Origin: Octopus sinensis
Taxonomy: Eukaryota
Reading direction: 5' to 3'
NCBI RefSeq assembly: GCF_006345805.1
Contig: NC_043005.1
Span: 10,044,001-10,108,000 of the forward strand
DNA length: 64,000 bases
The translations under genes were made by a program, and so were the position numbers. A model generated the notes under the pieces. The model did no database searches, was not told the DNA's origin, and was given only the letters and a program-made list of their open reading frames with translations. Every line of letters begins with the position of its first letter. Within the stretch, counting starts at the first letter, position 1. This document shows positions 1 through 62,669 of the stretch, in pieces.

Positions 1-1135
1 AGGAGGCGTGACAATATTGACGATAGACTCAGCTGATAAACCGACTCGTCCCACACGTGACAGCAGTTGTTCGACATAAGCCCACAGGTCGGAAATTGTT
101 GGACACTGAACGAGTGCATGCAGAACGGTTCGTCGCTCTGACCGCATCTCGGGCAGGTCGGCCCCGTGTTTCTCGAGCCGTGTCTGTAGAGCTTATCCCG
201 AACGGGTAGCGCTTCTCGGTAGCACTGCCAGGCCAGGGATCTCTGGAAGTTGTCCATGGGCCCTGGCCCGAAAGTCGTCCCGAACAGGCGGGTCGGGTAC
301 TCCTCGTCGACGTCCAGGTTCGCCCCGAGCTCGTCGTCGTACCTCCCCTCCACTAAACCCCTATAGAATGCTTTGGTTGTGTTGAAGTCACTTAAGGTCG
401 ACCCGGACGGCAGAGTTGCTTGAGAGCAACGCGACACTCGCGGTGCCATTCGCCCTTCCTCGGCCTCTTTTGATCCACGACTGCAGTTCGGTCATGGAGA
501 CGAGCTGCGGGAAAGCGTGCCTCACAAACGGCGACCACACCTGTTCACCGTCGTCTACATAGAGCCAGAGATGTCGCAGTCTCAGCGCGTGTCTGCGCAT
601 CATCAACCACGGCATGCCCAGCCCTCCTTTTAACGGGTGTTGACAGCAAATGGATCGCCTGAGCATCGGGACGCATCCTTTCCACAAGAAGCGAAAGAGG
701 ATGCGTTGTAGTTTGGTGATGGTAGGGTCGGGACAAGGTACGACGGTCAGGCGGTAGTCGGTAGTATAGATGACGACGCGATGTACGTGTTCGCCACCTC
801 CGCTCGACCTTTTAGGGACAGTTTCCTCTCGGGCCATTGCCGGGCGAGTGACCACCCTACTCGTTATCTCGTTCCAGTTCTTCTCCACTTGGAGGTCCGG
901 ACCAAACCAGACCCCGAGCAAACTCAAACGGGCCGTCGGTCCAGCGTCCACGACGAGGCGCTGGTGGACGGCATGGGCTTGCTTCTCCAGTGCCTAGTCG
1001 CAAGCCCACTGACTTTTCCCGTTGATTTTCGCTCCTGTCACCGCTTCGTAGTTTTTCAGTGTCTCGCCGACCAGCTCGATGTGCTCGTGGCTAGACACTA
1101 TGACGGTGACGTCGTCCGCGTATGCAGACACGCTC
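1..1135 (-). mobile_element. Tx1/L1-clade non-LTR retrotransposon, 5'-truncated ORF2 fragment with frameshifts; runs off the window start
   Basis: The minus strand reads SVSAYADDVTVIV (RT YADD, ~1110-1121), LLGVWFG, LFRFLWKG, KGGLGMP and a CPRC zinc-knuckle region. It is near-identical to 13629-14270 in inverted orientation. The 5' junction abuts (TATC)n. Confidence 0.9.
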
Positions 1136-7070: not shown

Positions 7071-7562
7071 AAGCGGCGAGCTGGCAGAAACGTTAACACG
7101 TCGGGCGAAATGCTTAGCGGTATTTCGTCTGCCGTTATGTTCTGAGATCAAACTCCGCCGAGGTCGACTTTGCCTTTTATCCTTTCGGGGTCGATTAAAT
7201 AAGCACCAGTTACGCACTGGGGTCGATGTAATCGACTTAATCCGTTTGTCTGTCCTTGTTTGTCCTCTCTGTGTTTAGCTTCTTGTGGGTAGTAAAGAAA
7301 TAGAAATAGGTATTTCGTCTGCGTTATGTTCTGAGATCAAACTCCGCCGAGGTCGACTTTGTCTTTCATCCTTTCGGGGTCTATTAAATAAGTACCAGTT
7401 ACGCACTGGCGTCGATATAATCGACTTAAACACTTTGTCTGTCCTTGTCATATATATATATATGAAGAGAGTATAGGAAGTACAGAGGGAGATAATTGAC
7501 AGGCATTAAGATTGACCTAATTGTCCCCTCTATATTTAGCCCCCTGTGGGCAACAAAGAAAT
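7071..7562 (+). mobile_element. SINE family B, tandem dimer with Tx1-like tails
   Basis: Head gcggcgagctggcagaaacgtt; the second unit restarts at ggtatttcgtc; both units end in ...gtggg..aaagaaata. Confidence 0.9.
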
Positions 7563-7797
7563 AAATATATATCAGCCATATATGCATGTGTGTGTGTGTG
7601 TTTGTACATGTGTATATATATATATATATATATCTATATATTATACATGTGTGTTTGTACATGTGTATATATATATATATAATATATTATATATATATAT
7701 ATATAATATATATATATATTATATATGCCACAGAAGCAGGGCAAAGCTGTATCACACGCGGGATTCGAATGAACGTGCAGGATTTCGTGGTAAGCAG

Positions 7798-7897
7798 NNN
7801 NNNNNNNNNNNNNNNNNNNNNNNNNNNNNNNNNNNNNNNNNNNNNNNNNNNNNNNNNNNNNNNNNNNNNNNNNNNNNNNNNNNNNNNNNNNNNNNNN
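7798..7897. other. Assembly gap (100 N)
   Basis: Run of N. Confidence 1.
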
Positions 7898-8747
7898 GTC
7901 ATTGTGGGGAATCACTGTGTACAGGGATTTTACATCTAAAGTGAAGAGGAGGTGTGAGGGGCTGGAAGGGAAGGAAAGGAATTGAAGAGACGGAGGGCGT
8001 GGTTGGTGTCGTGTATGTGGGATGGGAGGGCTGCGACTAAGGGGGACATGATGCGGTCGAGGTATAGGGAGAGTTTCAGTGGGGCAATTACAGGCAGAGA
8101 CTATGGGACGGCCAGGATTAGAGGGTTTATGGATCTTGGGAGGAAGTAGATGGTGGAGGTGCGGGGTGTGCGGACGATGAGGTTGGTGGCGGTGAGGGGG
8201 AGAGCGGAGGAGGAGATGAGGTCGTGGATGTGGAGGACACTCGCTGTTGGTAGGAGGAGGTGGGATCGGAGGGAGGAGGCGATAGAAGAGTGGATTTTGA
8301 AGCTGGTTGAGCGCTTCCTCCCTGTATAGGTCCGCGCGCCACACTACCACTGCCCCGCCTTTGTCCGCCGGTTTGATGACAATGTCATCACGACGGCGGA
8401 GGTGGCGAAGGGCAATGGATTCGGCCCGAGAGGTTGGCTCGGCGGGGTCTTGGTGCAAAGTTGAAACAGTGGACCAAAGCGTTGCAGTCATGTACAAACG
8501 AATCTAGGCTACTGAAAAGGCCTGGGGGCGGCGTCCAGATGGATGGACGACGCCCCAGCTCCAAAAGGCAATCCTGATTGTTGTGACGCTGCGGGGACGC
8601 GTGGTAGTATGCGCGAAGTTTGAGGCGGCGCAGGAACAGGTTGACGTCCGCCCGAGTCTCGAACTCATCACAGTGGCGCGTGAGTGGCGTGAAGCGGAGA
8701 CCCTTACTGAGGAGGGAACGCTCAGCGGCGGAGAGGGGGAGGTGGGG

Positions 8748-8786: not shown

Positions 8787-9277
8787 TACATAAGGCATCG
8801 AGCTGGCAGAATCATTAGCTCGCCGGAATGCCTAGCAACATTTCGTGTCTGTCATTATATTCTGAGCTGAAGTTTCGTCGAGGTCGGCTTTGCCTTTCAG
8901 CCTCTCAGTTGATAAAAAAAAAAAAGTACTAAAAATTCTTCATGAGAACTGGGGTCGATGATATCGATTCATCCCCCTCCTCCTAAAACGGAGTGTGCAT
9001 GCGTGTGTATAACAAAATACTGCATTGTACCGTTATTTATCGATGAATTATGCTTAAGCGAGATATATACAATATATATTTCGTTCTTATTTATTTCTGA
9101 TTCACCAGGGATCGCTAACTTTGCCTTGTCACTGTCAATATAGCTTTCTCTGAATAACGTCAACAAACGATTGTAAAAGTAAAGAAATTTATATATAATA
9201 ATATTAAGTTAGTACTGGGAATTAATGACAAAAGTGACAATGTTTGTACTTTTACAGTTAAATTAAATGTATATTCA

Positions 9278-9673
9278 TCTTTATATATAAAAGTGAAGTT
9301 GTGTGTCTGTCTCCTACGATTTAGATTCCGAACTACTCCCACATTTTGTGGTGCAGTTTAACCAAAACCGGGTATCTTATAGTCGTGATTCATATCGAGC
9401 CCTTCTGGGTATTAGCGCGCGTCTACGATGAGTCTACGATTTAAAAAAAAAATTACCATCATTTTTTTTCCATTTTAATGCATTTTTTGCTATTATATAA
9501 GGGAAGTAACTCTCTAAAAATGACTACGATGAGTCAACGATTTAAAAAAAAATTACCATCATTTTTATTCCATTTTTAATGCATTTTTTGGATATTTTTG
9601 GCTATAACTCTCTAAAAATGCTTATATAGTTATTTCCCTTACAAACCCGAGCAACGCCGGGCGATACTGCTAG
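9278..9673 (+). mobile_element. Non-autonomous Helitron, family 1
   Basis: 5' end A|TC; 3' hairpin cccgagcaacgccggg followed by CTAG|T; no TSD; five copies in the window. Confidence 0.9.
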
Positions 9674-11864: not shown

Positions 11865-12240
11865 AGGCGCAGGAGTAGATGTGTGGTTCCGGGTTCAGTC
11901 TCACTGCGTAGCACCTTGCACGAGTGTCTTCTACTATAGCCTCGGGCCGACCAAAGCCTTGTGAGTAGATTTGGTAGACGGTAACTGAAAGAATCCCGTC
12001 GTATATATGTATATGAATGTGTGTGTATATATTTGTGTGTCTGTTTTAGTCCCCCTTCCCAACATCGCTTGACAACCGATGCTGGTGTTTTTACGTCCCC
12101 GTAACTTAGCGGTTCGGCAAAAAAGACCGATAGAATAAGTACTAGGCTTACAAAGAATAAGTTCTGCGGTAGATTTGCTCGACTAAAGGTGGTGCTCCAG
12201 CCTGGCCACAGTCAAATGACTGAAACAAGTAAAAGAGTAA
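11865..12240 (+). mobile_element. SINE family A
   Basis: Matches 6341-6783 with a small head deletion. Confidence 0.88.
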
Positions 12241-13468: not shown

Positions 13469-13526
<58 letters not shown>

Positions 13527-13530
13527 ATTA

Positions 13531-13572
<42 letters not shown>

Positions 13573-13597
13573 CACATACACACACACAGACGCGTAC

Positions 13598-13628
<31 letters not shown>

Positions 13629-14909
13629 AAAAAGGAGGGCTGGGCATGCCGTGGTTGATGATGCGCAGATACGCGCTGAGACTGCGACATCTCTGGCTCT
13701 ATGTAGACGACGGTGAACAGGTGTGGTCGCCGTTTGTGAGGCACGCTTTCCCGCAGCTCGTCTCCATGACCGAACTGCAGTCGTGGATCAAAAAGAGGCC
13801 GAGGAAGGGCGAATGGCACCGCGAGTGTCGCGTTGCTCTCAAGCAACTCTGCCGTCCTGGGTCGACCTTAAGTGACTTCAACACAACCAAAGCATTCTAT
13901 AGGGGTTTAGTGGAGGGGAGGTACGACGACGAGCTCGGGGCGAACCTGGACGTCGACGAGGAGTACCTGACCCGCCTGTTCAGGACGACTTTCGGGCCAG
14001 GGCCCATGGACAACTTCCAGAGATCCCTGGCCTGGCAGTGCTACCGAGAAGCGCTACCCGTTCGGGATAAGCTCTACAGACACGGCTCGAGAAACACGGG
14101 GCCGACCTGCCCGAGATGCGGTCAGAGCGACGAAACCGTTCTGCACGCACTCGTTCAGTGTCCAACAATTTCAGACCTGTGGGCTTATGTCGAACAACTG
14201 CTGTCACGTGTGGGACGAGTCGGTTTATCAGCTGAGTCTATCGTCAATATTGTCACGCCTCCTTCCTTCAAACGGGAAGGAAGAGGTATTTTCATCATCC
14301 TTGTGGCTATGGCGAAAGAATGTATCTGGTGGACGCGTCTGAAAGGATTGGAGACAAACACTTTCCTCTCTGGTCAATCTCTCATCAACTTCTTCAAGTA
14401 CCACTTGAAAAGGAAAGTGAGAGTAGAGAGGCAAGTTTTGTCTAGCGAATGTTTTAAAAAAAGATAGGTGAATGTAGCAAGAATGGCACGTATGAATGAC
14501 GAAGCCATCTTGAGCATAATCCTATGAACCCAGAAATTGAAAACAGAGATTTGCTTATTTGCAAAAAAAAAAAAAAAAAAAAAAAGAAATATAAAATGTG
14601 ACTTCATTGACCGAGGTTACCGTGGTCTTTTCGGTAGGCTTTTCTTTCCACGGGTAAACCTCACCTGTCCTCCCCTTTACACTTCATATTGACATTTCTG
14701 TGATAACGATCCCTATTGATCAATTTTTTTTTCCTCTCCCCCCTTTTTTTAACCCCCCCTTTTTTGTCCTCTTTCTCTCCTTTTACGATCCCTTTTGATC
14801 GAAACATGCCCCTTTCATTTTTTTTTTTTTTTTTAAACCTTCAAAAGAAAAGCTCTACCTTGTAATTTGTTCTATCTGTGTGCAGCCCTGTGTGGCTAAT
14901 AAAGAAACA
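13629..14909 (+). mobile_element. Tx1/L1-clade LINE, 5'-truncated: ORF2 C-terminus plus 3' UTR
   Basis: Open frame KGGLGMP...CPRCGQSDETVLHALVQC (CCHC)...FKKR*. The TAG at 14465 is probably a mutated TGG, with the frame continuing to TGA at 14527. AATAAA at 14898, no poly(A), (TATC)n on both sides. Confidence 0.92.
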
Positions 14910-14933
14910 TATCTATCTATCTATCTATCTATC

Positions 14934-14964
<31 letters not shown>

Positions 14965-15102
14965 TATATATATATACAGACACATACACACACACAGACG
15001 CGTACATCTATCTATCTATCTATCTATCTGTCTATCTATCTATCTATCTATTTATCCATCTATCTATTTTTCGTTATATATATATATATATACATACATA
15101 TA

Positions 15103-15742: not shown

Positions 15743-16226
15743 AAGGCGGCGAGCTGGCAGAAACGTTAGCACGCCGGTCGAAATGCGTAGCTGTATTTCG
15801 TCTGCCGTTACGTTCTGAGTTCAAATTCCGCCGAGGTTGACTTAGCCCTTCATGCTTTCGGGGCCGATAAATAAAGTACCAGTTTCGCATAGGGTCGATG
15901 TAATCGACTTAATCCGTTTGTCTGTCCTTGTTTGTTCCCGCTGTGTTTAGTCCCTTGTGGGCAATAAAGAAATATATATTCCATATCTATCCCTGTCAAT
16001 ATATAGTTTGGTATTATATGAAGGCGGCGAGCTGGCAGAAACATTAGCGCGCCGGGTGAAATGCTTAGCGGTATTTCGTCTGCCGCTACGTTCTGAGTTC
16101 AAATTCCGCCGAGGTCGATAAATTAAGTACCAGTTACGCACTGGGGTCGATGTAATCGACTTGATCCGTTTGTCTGTCCTTGTTTGTCCCCTCTAGGTTC
16201 AGCCCCTCGTGGGTAGTAAAGAAATA
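15743..16226 (+). mobile_element. Two SINE-B copies in tandem, separated by duplicated target sequence
   Basis: Copies at 15743-15972 and 16021-16226; duplicated flanks at 15696-15742, 15974-16020 and 16223-16245. Confidence 0.9.
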
Positions 16227-16252: not shown

Positions 16253-16500
16253 TGGAGGCGCGTGGCTTAGTGGTTAGGGTGTCAGCATCATGATCGTAAG
16301 ATGGTGGTTTCGATTCCTGTATCGGGCGACGCGTTGTGTTCTTGAGCAAACACTTCATTTCACGCAGCTCCAGTCCACTCCGCTGGCAAAAATGAGTAAC
16401 GCTGCGATGGACTGGGGTCCCATACTGCTTGGGAACACATACGCCATGGAAGCCGGGAAACCGGGCCCATGAGCCTGGCTAGGCTTTGAACGGGTGCATC
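16253..16500 (+). mobile_element. tRNA-derived SINE, family C variant
   Basis: Head tggaggcgcgtggcttagtggttaggg...ggtttcgattcc; tail gcgatggactgg...gccgggaaaccgggccc, shared with 46110-46406. Confidence 0.75.
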
Positions 16501-27442: not shown

Positions 27443-28340
27443 AGATTTCAAATTTTAGCTCAAGGTGAACAATTTCGGGGAAGGGAGTAAGCCGATTACA
27501 TCGACCCCAATATTAAATTTATACTTATTTGATTGGCTCCGAAAGCATGAGAGGCGAGATCAACCTCGGCAGAATTTGAGCTCTGAACGCAAAGACGTCA
27601 GAGCTCAAAGATGAAATGCCGTCAAGCATTTTGCCTGGCGTGGTAAAGTTTCGGCCAGCTCGCTGCCTTACAAACTTACTCTATATTATTGGCTTCAATG
27701 TTTGGCACAAGGTCAGGAATTTCGAGTGAGAGGAAATTTGATTATATGGACCCCATTTCTCTACTGGTACATGTTTTATCTACACTGAAAAGATAAAAAG
27801 CAAAATGGACCTCCGTGTAACTCGAACTCAGAACATAAAGACAGACGAAAGGCCGGAAAGCATTTTGTCCGGCGCGCTAACGATTCTTAATTCTTTATTG
27901 CCCATATGGGACTAAGCACAGAGGGGACAAACAAGGACAGACAAAGAGATTAAGTCGATTACATCGATTCCAGTGCATAACTGGTACTTATTTAATCGAC
28001 CCCGAAAGGATGAAAGGCAAAGTCGACCTCGGCGGAATTTGAACTCAGAACGTAGCGGCAGACGAAATACCGCTAGGCATTTCGCCCGGCGTACTAACGT
28101 TTCTGCCAGCTCGCCACCTTACCTTCCTTTATAATATTAGTTTCAAATTATAGCGCAAGGCCAGACATTTCGAGTGGGGTTGGGTAAAGTCGATAACGTC
28201 GACCCCACTGATCAATTGTTACTTAACATATCAACCCCGAAAGGAAAATCAATCTCGGCGGAATTTGAACTCAAAACTTAAAGACAGACGAAATGCCAGG
28301 AAGAATTTTATCGGACGTGCTAACAACTCTGCTAGCTTGC
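27443..28340 (-). mobile_element. Cluster of about four SINE-B units, including a young Tx1-tailed copy at 27888-28120
   Basis: Repeated reverse-complement bodies cctcggcggaatttgaactca. Confidence 0.85.
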
Positions 28341-34682: not shown

Positions 34683-35832
34683 ATTTAATACAAATGATAC
34701 GTTTGAGAACTGAAATAACACTTGGCCTTACTTTGGTTTGAACTGACTTCGTCATTATTAATTTAAATTCGCCTTGATATTTCCTATAAACCCGTGCCTC
34801 ATCAGCAGTAAAACTCCTCGTGAAAAATACTGGGAGATCAGAATCAAATTTGTTAACAAAAGATGTTGCACAACTCAGCATCTTTTTGCCATTGAATGCT
34901 GATGTCTAAAGTTAAATGAATTCATCAATAACTAATCTTATTCTTATTCAGGGGTTCATTAAACATTTGCCGAGTAGAACTTTTAGTTAGTTACGTACAA
35001 CCTGGGCTCGTCACTAATTCTGTGTAGACTTCATTTATAGAAATTGAAGGACGCTTTGAGTCTTACCGTTCTCTAAAGAGTTCCTTCCATTCCCGTATAG
35101 GTAGTGGAACCATTGCTTTATGGCCATACAACGTTTCCTACTACTTTATCCAGCTCGTCATAAAATCCTCCTATGGTTTTGTATTGCGGTTATTTCTGGA
35201 AAGATCTTTTGTGATGTAAGAATATAATTACCAATAATTTATAATTATACAATGTGTACATTTGCTTCTTTCTTATTAATCTTTGTACAATGTAGTTATT
35301 TTAATGTATAATATTTTTTGGCACTAACTTTTAGGCGTCCGAGAACTAATTGTTTTTAACGAACTATCACTGTTTATATCACATGAACGTTTCTCATATA
35401 TAATTGCATTGAATAAGAAAACTCCCTTGAGGCATCGTCTTTCAGGCATATTTTTGAGTCATCAAGAAAGTCACTATAATCCATCTTCATATCTGTGTGT
35501 TTATGTGTAGTTCTCTGTGTGTGTGTAACTGTGTGCATGTGTGTGCGTGTCTGTGTGTCTAAGATTGTGTGCATGTGTGTGTGAGTGCGTGTGTGTCTGT
35601 GACTGTGTGCATGTGTGTGTGAGTGTGTGTGTGTCTGTGACTGTGTGAATGTGTGTGTGAGTGTGCGTCTGTATGCCTGTGTGTTTGTGAGTGTATGTGT
35701 GTATTAAGCACACTTACATCTCTCCAACTGAGATGAGCGTGTTTTGTTGAAGAGACCTAAGAAGGCCGAAAAATCCTTGTTCCTTGGATTTAAAAACCAA
35801 ATTCCTTTGAAGCGAAAATACTATTTTTGCCA

Positions 35833-36230
35833 AAGGCGACGAGATAGCAGAAACATTAGCACGCCGGGCGAAATGCGTAGCCGTATTTCGTCTGCCGTTA
35901 CGTTCTGAGTTCAAATTCTGCCGAGGTCGACTTTGCCTTTCATCCTTTCGGGGTCGATAAATTAAGTACCAGTTACGCACTGTGGTCGATATAATCGACT
36001 TAATCTGTTTGTCTATCCTTGTTTGTCCTCTCTGTGTTTAGCCCCTTGTGGGTAATAAAGAAATAGGTATTTCGTCAGTCTTTTCGTTCTGAGTTCAAAT
36101 TCCGTTAAGGTCGACTTTGCCTTTCATCCTTTTGGGATCGATAAATTAATTACCAGTAGCGTGCTGGGGTCGTTCTAATCAACTGAGCCCCTCCCCCAAA
36201 ATTTCGGGCCTTTTACCTAGAGTAGAAAAG
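35833..36230 (+). mobile_element. SINE-B composite: head-body-Tx1-like tail, then body-tail 1
   Basis: Junction aaagaaata|ggtatttcgtc at ~36065. Confidence 0.9.
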
Positions 36231-36435
36231 TATATTATTATTGCCAATTTTATGAGCAACTAACCTTATTGGACTTATATAATTTTTATTATTGCTTTAG
36301 ATATTTTAAACATCATTGAGGGGTGGAAATTTTTTCTAAAAACTGTTTGGATATCATTAGATTACACGTGAGTCTCTACCGTGCATGCAAAACTTTATTT
36401 CGAGCTATCCTCCCTGAGTCATAATGTTGATATAC

Positions 36436-38416: not shown

Positions 38417-38818
38417 ATTCTTTTCTGCTCTAGACACAAGGCCCGACATTTTGGGGGAGGGGGCCAGTCGATTAGATCAACCCCAGTACGCAAATGGTAC
38501 TTAATTTATCAACCCCGAAAGTATGAAAGGTAAAGTCGACCTCGGCGGAATTTGATCAAAGAACGTTAAGACAGACGAAATACCTATTTCTTTACTACCC
38601 ACAAGGGGCTAAACACAGAGAGGACAAACAAGGACACAGACAAACGGATTAAGTCGATTATATCTACCCCAGAGCGTAACTGTTACTTATTTAATCGACC
38701 CCGAAAGGATGAAATGCAACGCTGACCTCGGCGGAATTTGAACTCAGAACGTAACGGCAGACGAAATACCGCAAAGCACTTCGCCCGGCGTGCTAACGTT
38801 TCTGCCAGCTCACCGCCT
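38417..38818 (-). mobile_element. SINE-B composite (same architecture as 35833-36230)
   Basis: Reverse complement with the same tail/ggtatttcgtc junction. Confidence 0.9.
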
Positions 38819-40531: not shown

Positions 40532-41234
40532 ATTGTTGCAGTCAGGACATAAAATGCCGGATCAGATACTGCAGGAAATCCTCTCCAAAACTACAACTCC
40601 GCCAGCTGGTTATGATGGAGTGGTAATTTATCGAAAGACGAAACTTGATATTGACGGGATTTGAACTCGGAATGCAGACAGTCAGAACAAGTATAACAAC
40701 GCTTTATTTTTTTTCGATGATCTAACCACACTACCAAATTACTACCTAAATACGTAACTGGACTTATGTAGTAATTTGGCAGCGTGGTTAGACCATCGAA
40801 AAAAATAAAGCGTTCTAAGGCGGCGAGCTGGCAGAGACGTTAGCACGCCGGGCGAAATGCGTAGCCGTATTTCGTCTACCGTTCCGTTCTGAGTTCAAAT
40901 TCCGCCGAGGTCGACTTTGCCTTTCCTCCCTTCGGGGTCGATAAATTAAGTACCAGTAACGCACTGGGGTCGATATAATCGACTTAATCCGTTTGTCTGT
41001 CCTTGTTTATCCTCTCTGTGTTTAGCCCCTTGTGGGTAGTAAAGAAAAATAAAAAGAAAAAAATAAAGCGTTGTTGTAGCTGTCTGCACTTCGAGTTCAA
41101 ATCTCTCGCCTGTATCAACTTTCGTCTTTCGACAACAAATTACCAATCCAGCATAGCCAGGTGGCGGAGTTGTAGTTTTGGACTGGATTCCCAGCAGTAA
41201 AAGTTCCGGCATTTCGTATCCTGACTGCAACAAT
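40532..41234. repeat. Long diverged inverted repeat with a SINE-B (40817-41050) inserted in the right arm
   Basis: attgttgcagtcagga...caaaactacaactccgcca...ccaaattactac is mirrored by gtagtaatttgg...tggcggagttgtagttttgg...tcctgactgcaacaat. SINE TSD aaaaaataaagcgtt. Confidence 0.87.
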
Positions 41235-43169: not shown

Positions 43170-43631
43170 ATTGCTTTCAAATTTTGACTCATGGACAGCA
43201 ATTTCAGGGAAGGATAAGTCCATTACCTCGACCCTAGTACTCAAGCGGTACGTATTTTATCGAATCCGAAAGGATGAAAGGTAAAGTCGACCTTAACGGA
43301 ATTTGAACTCAGAACGTAAAGACGAACAAAATATTGCTAAGTATTTTGTCCGACGCCCTAACAATTCTTATTTCTTTATTGCCCTCACGGGGCTAAACAT
43401 AGAGGGGACAAACAAGGACAGACAAAAGAATTAAGTCGATTACATCGACCCCAGTGCGTAACTAGTACTTAATTTATCGACCCCGAAAGGATGAAAGGCA
43501 AAGTCGACCTCGGCAGAATTTGAACTCAGAGCGTAGAGGCAGACGAAATACCTTTATTACCCACAAGGGGCTAAACACAGAGAGGACAAACAAGGACAGA
43601 CAAACGGATCAAGTCGATTACATCGACCCCA
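43170..43631 (-). mobile_element. SINE-B tandem array (two Tx1-like tails plus an older tail-1 unit)
   Basis: Reverse-complement units with junctions at gtatttcgtc and agaattgttag. Confidence 0.87.
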
Positions 43632-44476
43632 GGTTTTCTTTGAAAACCTTGTCGTTTTTCAGTTTATTTAACGCTAAGTCAAAGAAGGAAGGACAGTATC
43701 CATGTCATTATGCATGTAATTGATGGGAAAGAGTGAAGAAGATATTAACTGGCCGAAGCCCTGGTCCAATGTTTGCAACAAAGTTGACTACACAGAAGAA
43801 TCCCAGGGCACCAGATGGTAATGTTTGACAAACAAGAGAATTTGTCCCTCTAATAAGCTTTCACGCTGTTTCCACCAACCAAATTTCATTGGTAAAGATT
43901 TGGTCAATCCGAATCTATGATGGGAAAAAACTTGCCTAAGGTACCACTTAGTGGGATCAAACCCGAAACCGCTTAGCTGCAAAGCGAATGTCTTAGCCGC
44001 ACAATTATGACTCCGCCCAATCTTGCCTTCTTTAATATTAAAATCCTTCGAAAGTGCCTGACCCGAGAACCCATATCTCTTCTCTTATTTTATGTATCAG
44101 GTCGGATCTCTTCTTTTAGACAGTAACATCTCAAAGTGAATTGATGGTGTTCTCTAACACTTATATTCCATCTACTCTGTTTTACTTCAGGATTGAAATA
44201 CATGGCTGACAGGTTTATAATATCCGACTTACCATAAAACAATATCAGAGAATAGCTATTTACATAGAGTGTTATATTTTCTTTAATTGTCCATTAGTAT
44301 TATCTACAACAATCGGGTTGCTGCTTGAGAGGATTTTTGTAATTTTTCTAGCAACTATGATCGTATCCAGATCACCGGTTGTAATATGAGAAAGATTCGG
44401 TTGTCATTTATAACAAGGCAAGTGAATATATAGGAGCTCTCTGTCGTTTTAAAAAAGGATTCCAGATAAGCTAGTC

Positions 44477-44894
44477 TATTTCTTTACTACCCACAAGGGG
44501 CTAAACACAGAGGGGACAAACAAGGACAGACACATGGATTAAGTCGATTACATCGACCCCAGTGCGTCACTGGTACTTAATTTATCGACCCCGAAAGGAT
44601 GAATGGCAAAGTCGACCTCGGCTGAATTTGAACACAGAACGTAGCGGCAGACGAAATACCTATTTCTTTACTACCCACAAGGGGCTAAACACAGAGGGGA
44701 CAAACAAGGACAGACTAACGGATTAAGTCGATTACATCGAACCCAGTGCGTAACTGGTACTTAATTTTATCGACCCCGAAAGGATGAAAGGCAAAGTCGA
44801 CCTCGGCGAAATTTGAACTCAGAACGTAACGGCAGACGAAATACAGCTACGCATTTCGCCTGGCGTGCTAACGTTTCTGCCAGCTCGCCGCCTT
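44477..44894 (-). mobile_element. SINE-B dimer with a perfect 18-bp TSD
   Basis: attccagataagctagtc at 44459-44476 and 44895-44912. Confidence 0.93.
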
Positions 44895-62616: not shown

Positions 62617-62669
62617 TGTCCTTGTTTGTCCTCTCTGCGTTTAGCCCCTTGTGGGTAGTAAAGAAATAG
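62617..62669 (+). mobile_element. Isolated Tx1-like SINE-B tail
   Basis: tgtccttgtttgtcctctctgcgtttagccccttgtgggtagtaaagaaata with no SINE body. Confidence 0.85.

Follow-up and report, generated by a model that had tools for sequence, protein, structure and literature searches.

We examined a 64-kb window of the Octopus sinensis genome (contig NC_043005.1, positions 10,044,001 to 10,108,000; coordinates below are counted from its first nucleotide), in which a long interspersed element (LINE) and a short interspersed element (SINE), here called SINE-B, have a conserved 3' tail in common. The LINE is a 5'-truncated copy of a family that we call A. It occupies 13630..14909 on the plus strand and comprises the C-terminus of the second open reading frame (ORF2) with its zinc finger (zf-RVT, E 3e-08), interrupted by a premature stop at 14465, followed by a ~380-nt 3' untranslated region (UTR) that closes with the tail at 14858..14909 (+). 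The tail itself is made up of a U-rich run, a hairpin, AATAAA and the terminus AAAGAAACA. SINE-B is represented by a 234-nt copy at 35832..36065 (+), with a transfer RNA (tRNA)-type head, a body and a Tx1-type tail at ~36005-36065.

When 14858-14909 and 36017-36065 are aligned globally, 41 positions are identical, 8 are mismatched and a single 3-nt gap is needed, which reproduces exactly the hand count (41/49 plus the gap) of the original prediction, an earlier reading of this window from its letters. BLASTN recovers the same match inside the window at E 5e-07. Inspection of the sequence ends, together with the terminal match in this alignment, bears out two further statements of that reading: both elements end at AAAGAAAYA without poly(A), and both keep a small hairpin, AGCC-cugugu-GGCU in the LINE and GCCC-cuugu-GGGY in the SINE. 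The predicted RNA hairpin of the LINE, at 14884..14897 (+), has a 4-bp stem and a 6-nt loop, and the 20-mer around it folds at -4.5 kcal/mol. A search of the window for the tail pattern yields 13 matches, the LINE and 12 of SINE type, whereas shuffles predict 0.12, so the earlier estimate of about ten copies was correct.

Directly behind the LINE tail lies a (TATC)n-led composite microsatellite of ~127 bp (14910..15036, +), a second copy of which is found by local alignment upstream of the element at ~13500-13628. Its presence on both sides suggests a very long target-site duplication, as would arise when the second nick is made in the next TATC block. Another family A copy, at 1..1135 on the minus strand, has its 5' junction in (TATC)n and extends beyond the left window edge; outside the window (locus L080) it finishes with the shared tail and (TATC)n.

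The tail across the LINE lineage

We asked whether the tail belongs to family A as a whole. Among the findings that would undo it, the original prediction had named full-length copies without this 3' end. With ORF2 DNA as the sole basis of selection, 29 of 30 loci have the tail, 390-540 nt downstream, and in the 30th another insertion interrupts the element. A chance LINE-SINE chimera is therefore rejected. The 30 loci include the window copy, and several overlap a listed set of 39 other loci, to which the window copy is 95-98% identical. With 2072 candidates at first look, family A is an abundant family, and whole copies are ~5.8 kb long (e.g. loci L065, L078 and L079). At least 28/30 of the ORF2-selected loci have (TATC)n 3' of the element, and the 5' junction lies in (TATC)n in 25 of 34 rows, a count that includes four duplicate rows and two reference copies.

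Searching with proteins and sampling 1.0 Mb at random, as 100 stretches taken from 12 large contigs, brought further families to light; the database proteins P0004 and P0005, used as queries, led mostly to families that were known by then. The tail is present in 28/30 loci of family B, 10 copies of family C, 30/30 loci of family D, 28/30 of family E and 17/20 of family F. What follows it differs: (ATT)n in B, (TATC)n in C, (TC)n in 30/30 loci of D, a fixed non-microsatellite sequence or the element's own 5' end in E, and the head of another tRNA-type SINE behind 14/17 tails of F (for B, D and F the target was seen on the 3' side only). Families A-E and the database proteins P0003, P0004, P0231 and P0233 form one clade with a Shimodaira-Hasegawa-like approximate likelihood ratio (SH-aLRT) of 99, in a quick tree with unnamed outgroups only and with family F left out. 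Protein identity between families of this clade is 57-80%. The last 65 nt can be aligned (z>3) in 15/21 family pairs, the remaining UTR in 3/21.

Two of these families deserve mention in their own right. Family E (L228; L301-L330) includes 43 loci that are identical over a 72-residue query and several open frames of 1132 codons, and is young; some of its copies stand in tandem, ~5.2 kb apart. Family F is a SINE-targeting Tx1-type family, whose tails are followed by the SINE head at one fixed site (L070:6880-7520 (-); L331-L350). Four more F-like tails lie in the random sample at the SINE-head site, three of them followed by that head.

The tail is also carried by elements with ORF1 only. In one set of loci, ORF1 lies within ~1 kb of the tail in 16/20 and ORF2 is seen in none; loci selected by ORF1 have the tail ~750-900 nt later in 13/20 and ORF2 in 0/20 (1.1 kb after ORF1). 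Elements unable to make a reverse transcriptase (RT) have thus kept the tail, which is what a cis signal predicts. Their targets include the A-box site of the SINE head, a second repeat (7/20 loci of the first set) and others; in the 11 best loci of one such family, G, the SINE head at the A box follows in 11/11. Many of these are diverged, HAL1-like ORF1-only families with the lineage tail and differing targets (L224:2850-4560; L351-L390). The tail is therefore the true 3' end, conserved across the lineage, of six ORF2 families (A-F) and their ORF1-only derivatives.

As to the identity of this lineage, the family A ORF2 (~1145 residues) contains an APE endonuclease, an RT and a C-terminal cysteine-rich zinc finger, the architecture of the L1/Tx1 group; PF03372, PF00078 and PF13966 are all present on two 1149-residue ORF2 open frames. 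Among solved structures the best match is human L1 ORF2p (E 7e-55; R2, 1e-20). A CX2CX4HX4C knuckle is visible in ORF1, although Pfam zf-CCHC scores E 0.01, under the curated cut-off. An ORF1 with a CCHC zinc knuckle is typical of Tx1, unlike mammalian L1. Tx1 families prefer microsatellites, multicopy RNA genes or transposons as targets (PMC4494074), and families A, D, F and G insert in such targets. Since the protein-search matches, of which the closest named one came from Argonauta, included no Tx1 or L1 reference with a name, Tx1 is a likely label, based on architecture and target specificity and not on a tree with named references.

Could the LINEs instead have captured a SINE end, or the likeness be due to chance? 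Several families insert into SINEs, so captures are possible. However, the tail is found in every branch of the clade, down to 57% protein identity, and varies with the clade; its scores against the SINE tails (36-56) exceed the null maxima of 21-30. In addition, a sister SINE, SINE-A, which is abundant in the random sample and ends at 36185-36240 in the window, has the same body as SINE-B and a different tail. That the two differ only in the tail is as tail exchange predicts. We regard both capture and chance as highly improbable.

The tail hairpin and SINE-B integration

The covariation check suggested in the original prediction was run over 11 families and shows that the third stem pair covaries. 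It is C-G in SINE-B, E, G, H363 and I, G-C in A, B, C and F, A-U in D and U-A in H367. At least three Watson-Crick pairs form in 11/11 families, versus a mean of 6.5 after arm swaps (p 0.002, anchored on the 3' arm). Among SINE-B copies one stem base varies freely opposite G, being C in 24/78 and U in 54/78. LINE and SINE thus have a common 3' end with a conserved stem-loop, the arrangement known from stringent pairs. AGTAAA replaces AATAAA in 51/78 SINE-B copies, indicating that a poly(A) signal is not needed.

These data bear on the role of the hairpin. The tail could have come from the Tx1-type lineage and the SINE be moved by its ORF2 protein (ORF2p), with the hairpin serving 3' end formation or RNA stability beside AAUAAA and recognition being relaxed. 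Retention of AATAAA in most LINE tails, the short stem, loops that vary between families and the many different passengers are all consistent with such a role. Yet most SINE-B copies have lost AATAAA and retain the stem, an RNA polymerase II end signal is of no obvious use to a SINE that RNA polymerase III (Pol III) transcribes, and it is the terminal segment alone, and nothing else, that all passengers have kept. This explanation seems to us unlikely, although it deserves more weight than the other alternatives considered here.

The hairpin of sister SINE-A has the same CUUGU loop as that of SINE-B, and its outer pair across 63 copies alternates between U-A (20), A-U (19) and G-U (12). The SINE-A tail scores 18.4 against the family B tail, with a null maximum of 18.8, a borderline value that is a hint only; SINE-A may be a second passenger.

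SINE-B is short, non-coding and present in high copy number, with target duplications, as expected of a SINE. Its head has A-box-like and B-box-like motifs, read by eye only, and ARAGORN tRNA and Rfam scans of the element gave no match. The random 1.0 Mb contains 75 SINE-B tails, which extrapolates to ~200,000 in 2.7 Gb, and mean pairwise identity is 89.7%. Target duplications of 10-22 nt flank 22/37 SINE arrays, each defined as a head plus a terminal B tail, versus 0.42 in shuffled pairs (one of the 22 is a simple repeat). In those 22 arrays the duplications begin within 10 nt of the B tail. SINE-B therefore integrates at its tail with target duplications.

To see where it integrates, we inspected the sequence behind 89 SINE tails (92 matches minus 3 LINE tails). 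(TATC)n follows in 0/89, a SINE from the A box in 5/89 and (TA)n in 10/89; the most frequent follower, a SINE unit from position ~52, is weighed below. At locus L292 a full SINE-B lies inside a SINE head at position 52, flanked by an 18-nt duplication. The A-box site is also that of the best family G loci, so that family G and SINE-B use a common insertion site; at locus L224 it is occupied, directly behind a SINE-B, by a G element flanked by 16 duplicated nt. The position-52 class may reflect targeted insertion with a homology-guided 5' junction, or dimers moved whole. At locus L256 we also observed a tandem array of eight SINE-B units of ~183 bp, one full and the others starting from position 52.

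Candidate drivers of SINE-B

We propose that SINE-B is copied in trans by the ORF2p of a lineage cousin of family A that recognises the shared 45-60-nt tail without poly(A), a reading that we hold to be likely, if some way from certain. Pol III would transcribe the SINE RNA from the tRNA-type head, and an ORF2p of the lineage, probably from the E/G branch, would bind the U-rich run and hairpin of this RNA. The endonuclease would nick the target, mostly 5' of a purine and in many cases within the head of a SINE, at its A box or its position 52; target-primed reverse transcription would then start a few bases after AAUAAA/AGUAAA, with no poly(A) tail. The original claim that a stringent Tx1 lineage mobilises the SINE stands as far as the conserved lineage tail, the covarying hairpin and the integration are concerned, while the binding, the stringency itself and the identity of the partner are things that we infer.

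Which family is the driver? The window's own family A has in its favour the 41/49 identity with the same terminal AAAGAAAYA, and its abundance. Its targets argue otherwise: family A sits in (TATC)n at both ends and none of the 89 SINE-B tails does, so that the two do not insert in the same target and family A is largely rejected as the partner. Moreover, its stem, with G-C as third pair and a loop of 6 nt, is of another type than that of the SINE, and SINE copies are older on average (89.7% identity) than the best A copies (95-99%, in a score-biased sample). The pairing of SINE-B with the window's own LINE family, as originally envisaged, is accordingly very improbable; family A is probably not the driver, and a cousin family fits better.

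Scoring the tails against 78 SINE tails, 8 of them from one array, gave mean local scores of 55.6 for E, 50.3 for A2, 49.9 for G354, 49.7 for H363, 48.2 for I369 and 47.8 for A. Lower means were obtained for F (41.7), C (39.4), D (38.8) and B (36.1). Families E and G have the same stem type as SINE-B. Family F matches the upstream part of the SINE tail almost exactly over ~24 nt, which brings the length of the LINE-derived segment closer to 60 nt than to 49. The driver probably belongs to the CCC/GGG-hairpin branch (family E and the ORF1-only G/H), and is perhaps an older family, now decayed.

Several observations weigh against SINE-B being copied by a hairpin-recognising cousin of family A. 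The stem has only 3-5 bp, and the families compared are related and hence not independent. A statistic on total pairs with G-U allowed is not significant (p 0.12), and the RNAalifold covariation term is ~0 on a MAFFT alignment in which five rows are out of register. Pattern and ORF1 searches recovered no autonomous family with the exact tail and targets of SINE-B: one exact pattern joining the F-like upstream run to the SINE tail, a narrow search, had 0 matches, and none of the 20 examined of 150 ORF1 matches was a sister of G with ORF2. What follows family E is another repeat or the 5' end of E itself, and the tail scores of the candidate families differ only modestly. Five distant RT fragments showed no tail below E 1 downstream, a weak check of non-Tx1 LINEs. 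Finally, a SINE unit from position ~52 follows 38/89 tails (7 of them in one array), and these may be dimers whose mobilisation started at some other 3' end.

This last point leads to a further alternative, in which the tail is a relic and RTE, CR1/L2 or R4 elements were responsible for most of the spread of SINE-B, in the form of dimers or read-through RNAs and for example via the SINE-A tail. The abundance of the sister SINE, which has this body but a tail of its own, would fit, as would the recent activity of RTE, CR1 and Dong-R4 in Octopus vulgaris (PMC13282606). Against it stand the duplications that start within 10 nt of the B tail and the full SINE-B inserted in a SINE head at L292. In 1.06 Mb the tail profile has 17 matches that lie outside SINEs; all strong ones among them belong to Tx1-type elements or to SINEs that are truncated, and the tail-less RT fragments point the same way. 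We consider a relic tail improbable, slightly more so than a hairpin with another role.

Known systems and other window features

The nearest precedent is SINEU and Tx1-Mar of crocodilians, where common targets led to the proposal that a SINE is moved by target-specific Tx1 LINEs (Kojima 2015, PMC4494074). As in octopus, LINE and SINE have common insertion sites within another transposon, and sister Tx1 families hit microsatellites. SINEU elements, however, have small nuclear RNA heads and poly(A) tails, and that study found no LINE with the 3' end of SINEU-1, whereas SINE-B has a tRNA-type head, no poly(A), a tail in common with the LINE and the SINE head as the common target. The same source describes families tied to one microsatellite, namely Kibi and Koshi of fish and crocodilian Tx1, comparable to A and C in (TATC)n, D in (TC)n and B in (ATT)n; in those parts no shared-tail SINE is described for Kibi or Koshi, and the likeness is one of description, not of sequence.

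Shared tails are known from maize (ZmSINE2/3 with LINE1-1_ZM) and Chlamydomonas (SINEX-3_CR with L1-1_CR), where an L1-clade LINE and a tRNA SINE have ~50-80 terminal nt in common (PMC3472496, PMC3747384). The grass L1-clade pair also resembles the octopus tail in its hairpin with compensatory changes, conserved across the LINE lineage (Ohshima 2012, PMC3472496). These pairs differ in coming from plants and algae and in that their LINEs end in poly(A). In the stringent L2 pairs UnaL2/UnaSINE1 and ZfL2, a 3' stem-loop is likewise the proposed ORF2p signal, with loop specificity (Hayashi 2014, PMC4176376); those belong to the L2 clade and were tested by assay, while the octopus stem is much shorter and known from sequence alone. 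HAL1 and other ORF1-only LINEs (Kojima 2018, PMC5786205) are comparable to G/H, which retain ORF1 together with the 3' end but have no ORF2. Families G/H differ from HAL1 in their origin from a Tx1-type lineage, their target specificity and their hairpin tail.

The octopus SINEs OK, OR1 and OR2 were reportedly described by Ohshima and Okada in 1994. In the accessible parts of two later papers they are cited as CORE-type, with no partner LINE given (PMC4758252, PMC4824008). They resemble SINE-B in being tRNA-type octopus SINEs, compared here by description only; SINE-B may be one of them, and is probably already catalogued. The original prediction knew of no earlier report of such a partnership. 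No octopus SINE-Tx1 tail pair was found in the searchable literature, a scope that excludes the 1994 octopus SINE paper, subscription papers, repeat databases and supplements; SINEU and the plant and algal shared tails, however, are published precedents (PMC4494074, PMC3472496). A table of 58 pairs lists no Tx1 pair, animal L1-clade pair or octopus SINE (Ohshima 2013, PMC3747384), and no octopus SINE-Tx1 pair is mentioned in the accessible parts of PMC13282606, PMC8967140, PMC9115989, PMC10294476, PMC4758252, PMC4824008 and PMC5786205. Within this literature, shared tails in the L1 group have previously been reported only from plants and algae.

Taken more broadly, the data raise a picture that we find quite possible without calling it probable: an octopus lineage of the L1/Tx1 group recognises a tiny 3' hairpin in place of poly(A), has radiated by target and drives both a ~200,000-copy SINE and a swarm of ORF1-only elements, with some families homing into the heads of the SINEs that are mobilised. 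It has been proposed from the plant and algal pairs that recognition of the 3' end was strict in the first members of the L1 group and later relaxed to poly(A) (PMC3472496). If true, our reading would mean that stringent recognition also occurs in L1-group elements of animals, in support of that ancestral state. It would also name the likely engine of one of the most abundant octopus repeats, and show LINEs using SINE heads as landing sites. The shared hairpin tail, the intact young ORF2 frames and the natural loop and target variants make the question of ancestral recognition directly testable.

The window contains further copies of SINE-B. Behind the copy at 35832..36065, a SINE segment from head position 52 with the sister SINE-A tail at its end (36066..36240, +) is either the SINE into which SINE-B inserted or the right arm of a dimer. 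At 44477..44894 (-) a SINE-B and, behind it, a second unit that starts at position 52 form a pair flanked by an 18-nt target-site duplication, and at 7073..7302 (+) SINE-B is again followed by a SINE from position 52. A solitary SINE-B at 40817..41047 (+) has a target-site duplication of ~16-19 nt, and two copies at 15743..16226 (+) form a local tandem duplication. Additional copies are at 27888-28120, 38585-38818 and 43369-43632 (minus strand), and tail-only pieces at 7521-7563 and 62619-62668.

Other repeats are also present. A decayed RT-like fragment at 7634-8720 (-) adjoins an assembly gap and has no Pfam match; we take its motifs to resemble those of Penelope-type elements. A repeat at 9085-9640 also interrupts the LINE copies L097 and L332; its ends are short and inverted, and it may be a Helitron-like element or a DNA transposon of the non-autonomous kind. 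Two other tRNA-type SINE-like families are found at 11865-12240 (+) and 16255-16500 (+), the first of which is the one whose head LINE family F targets.
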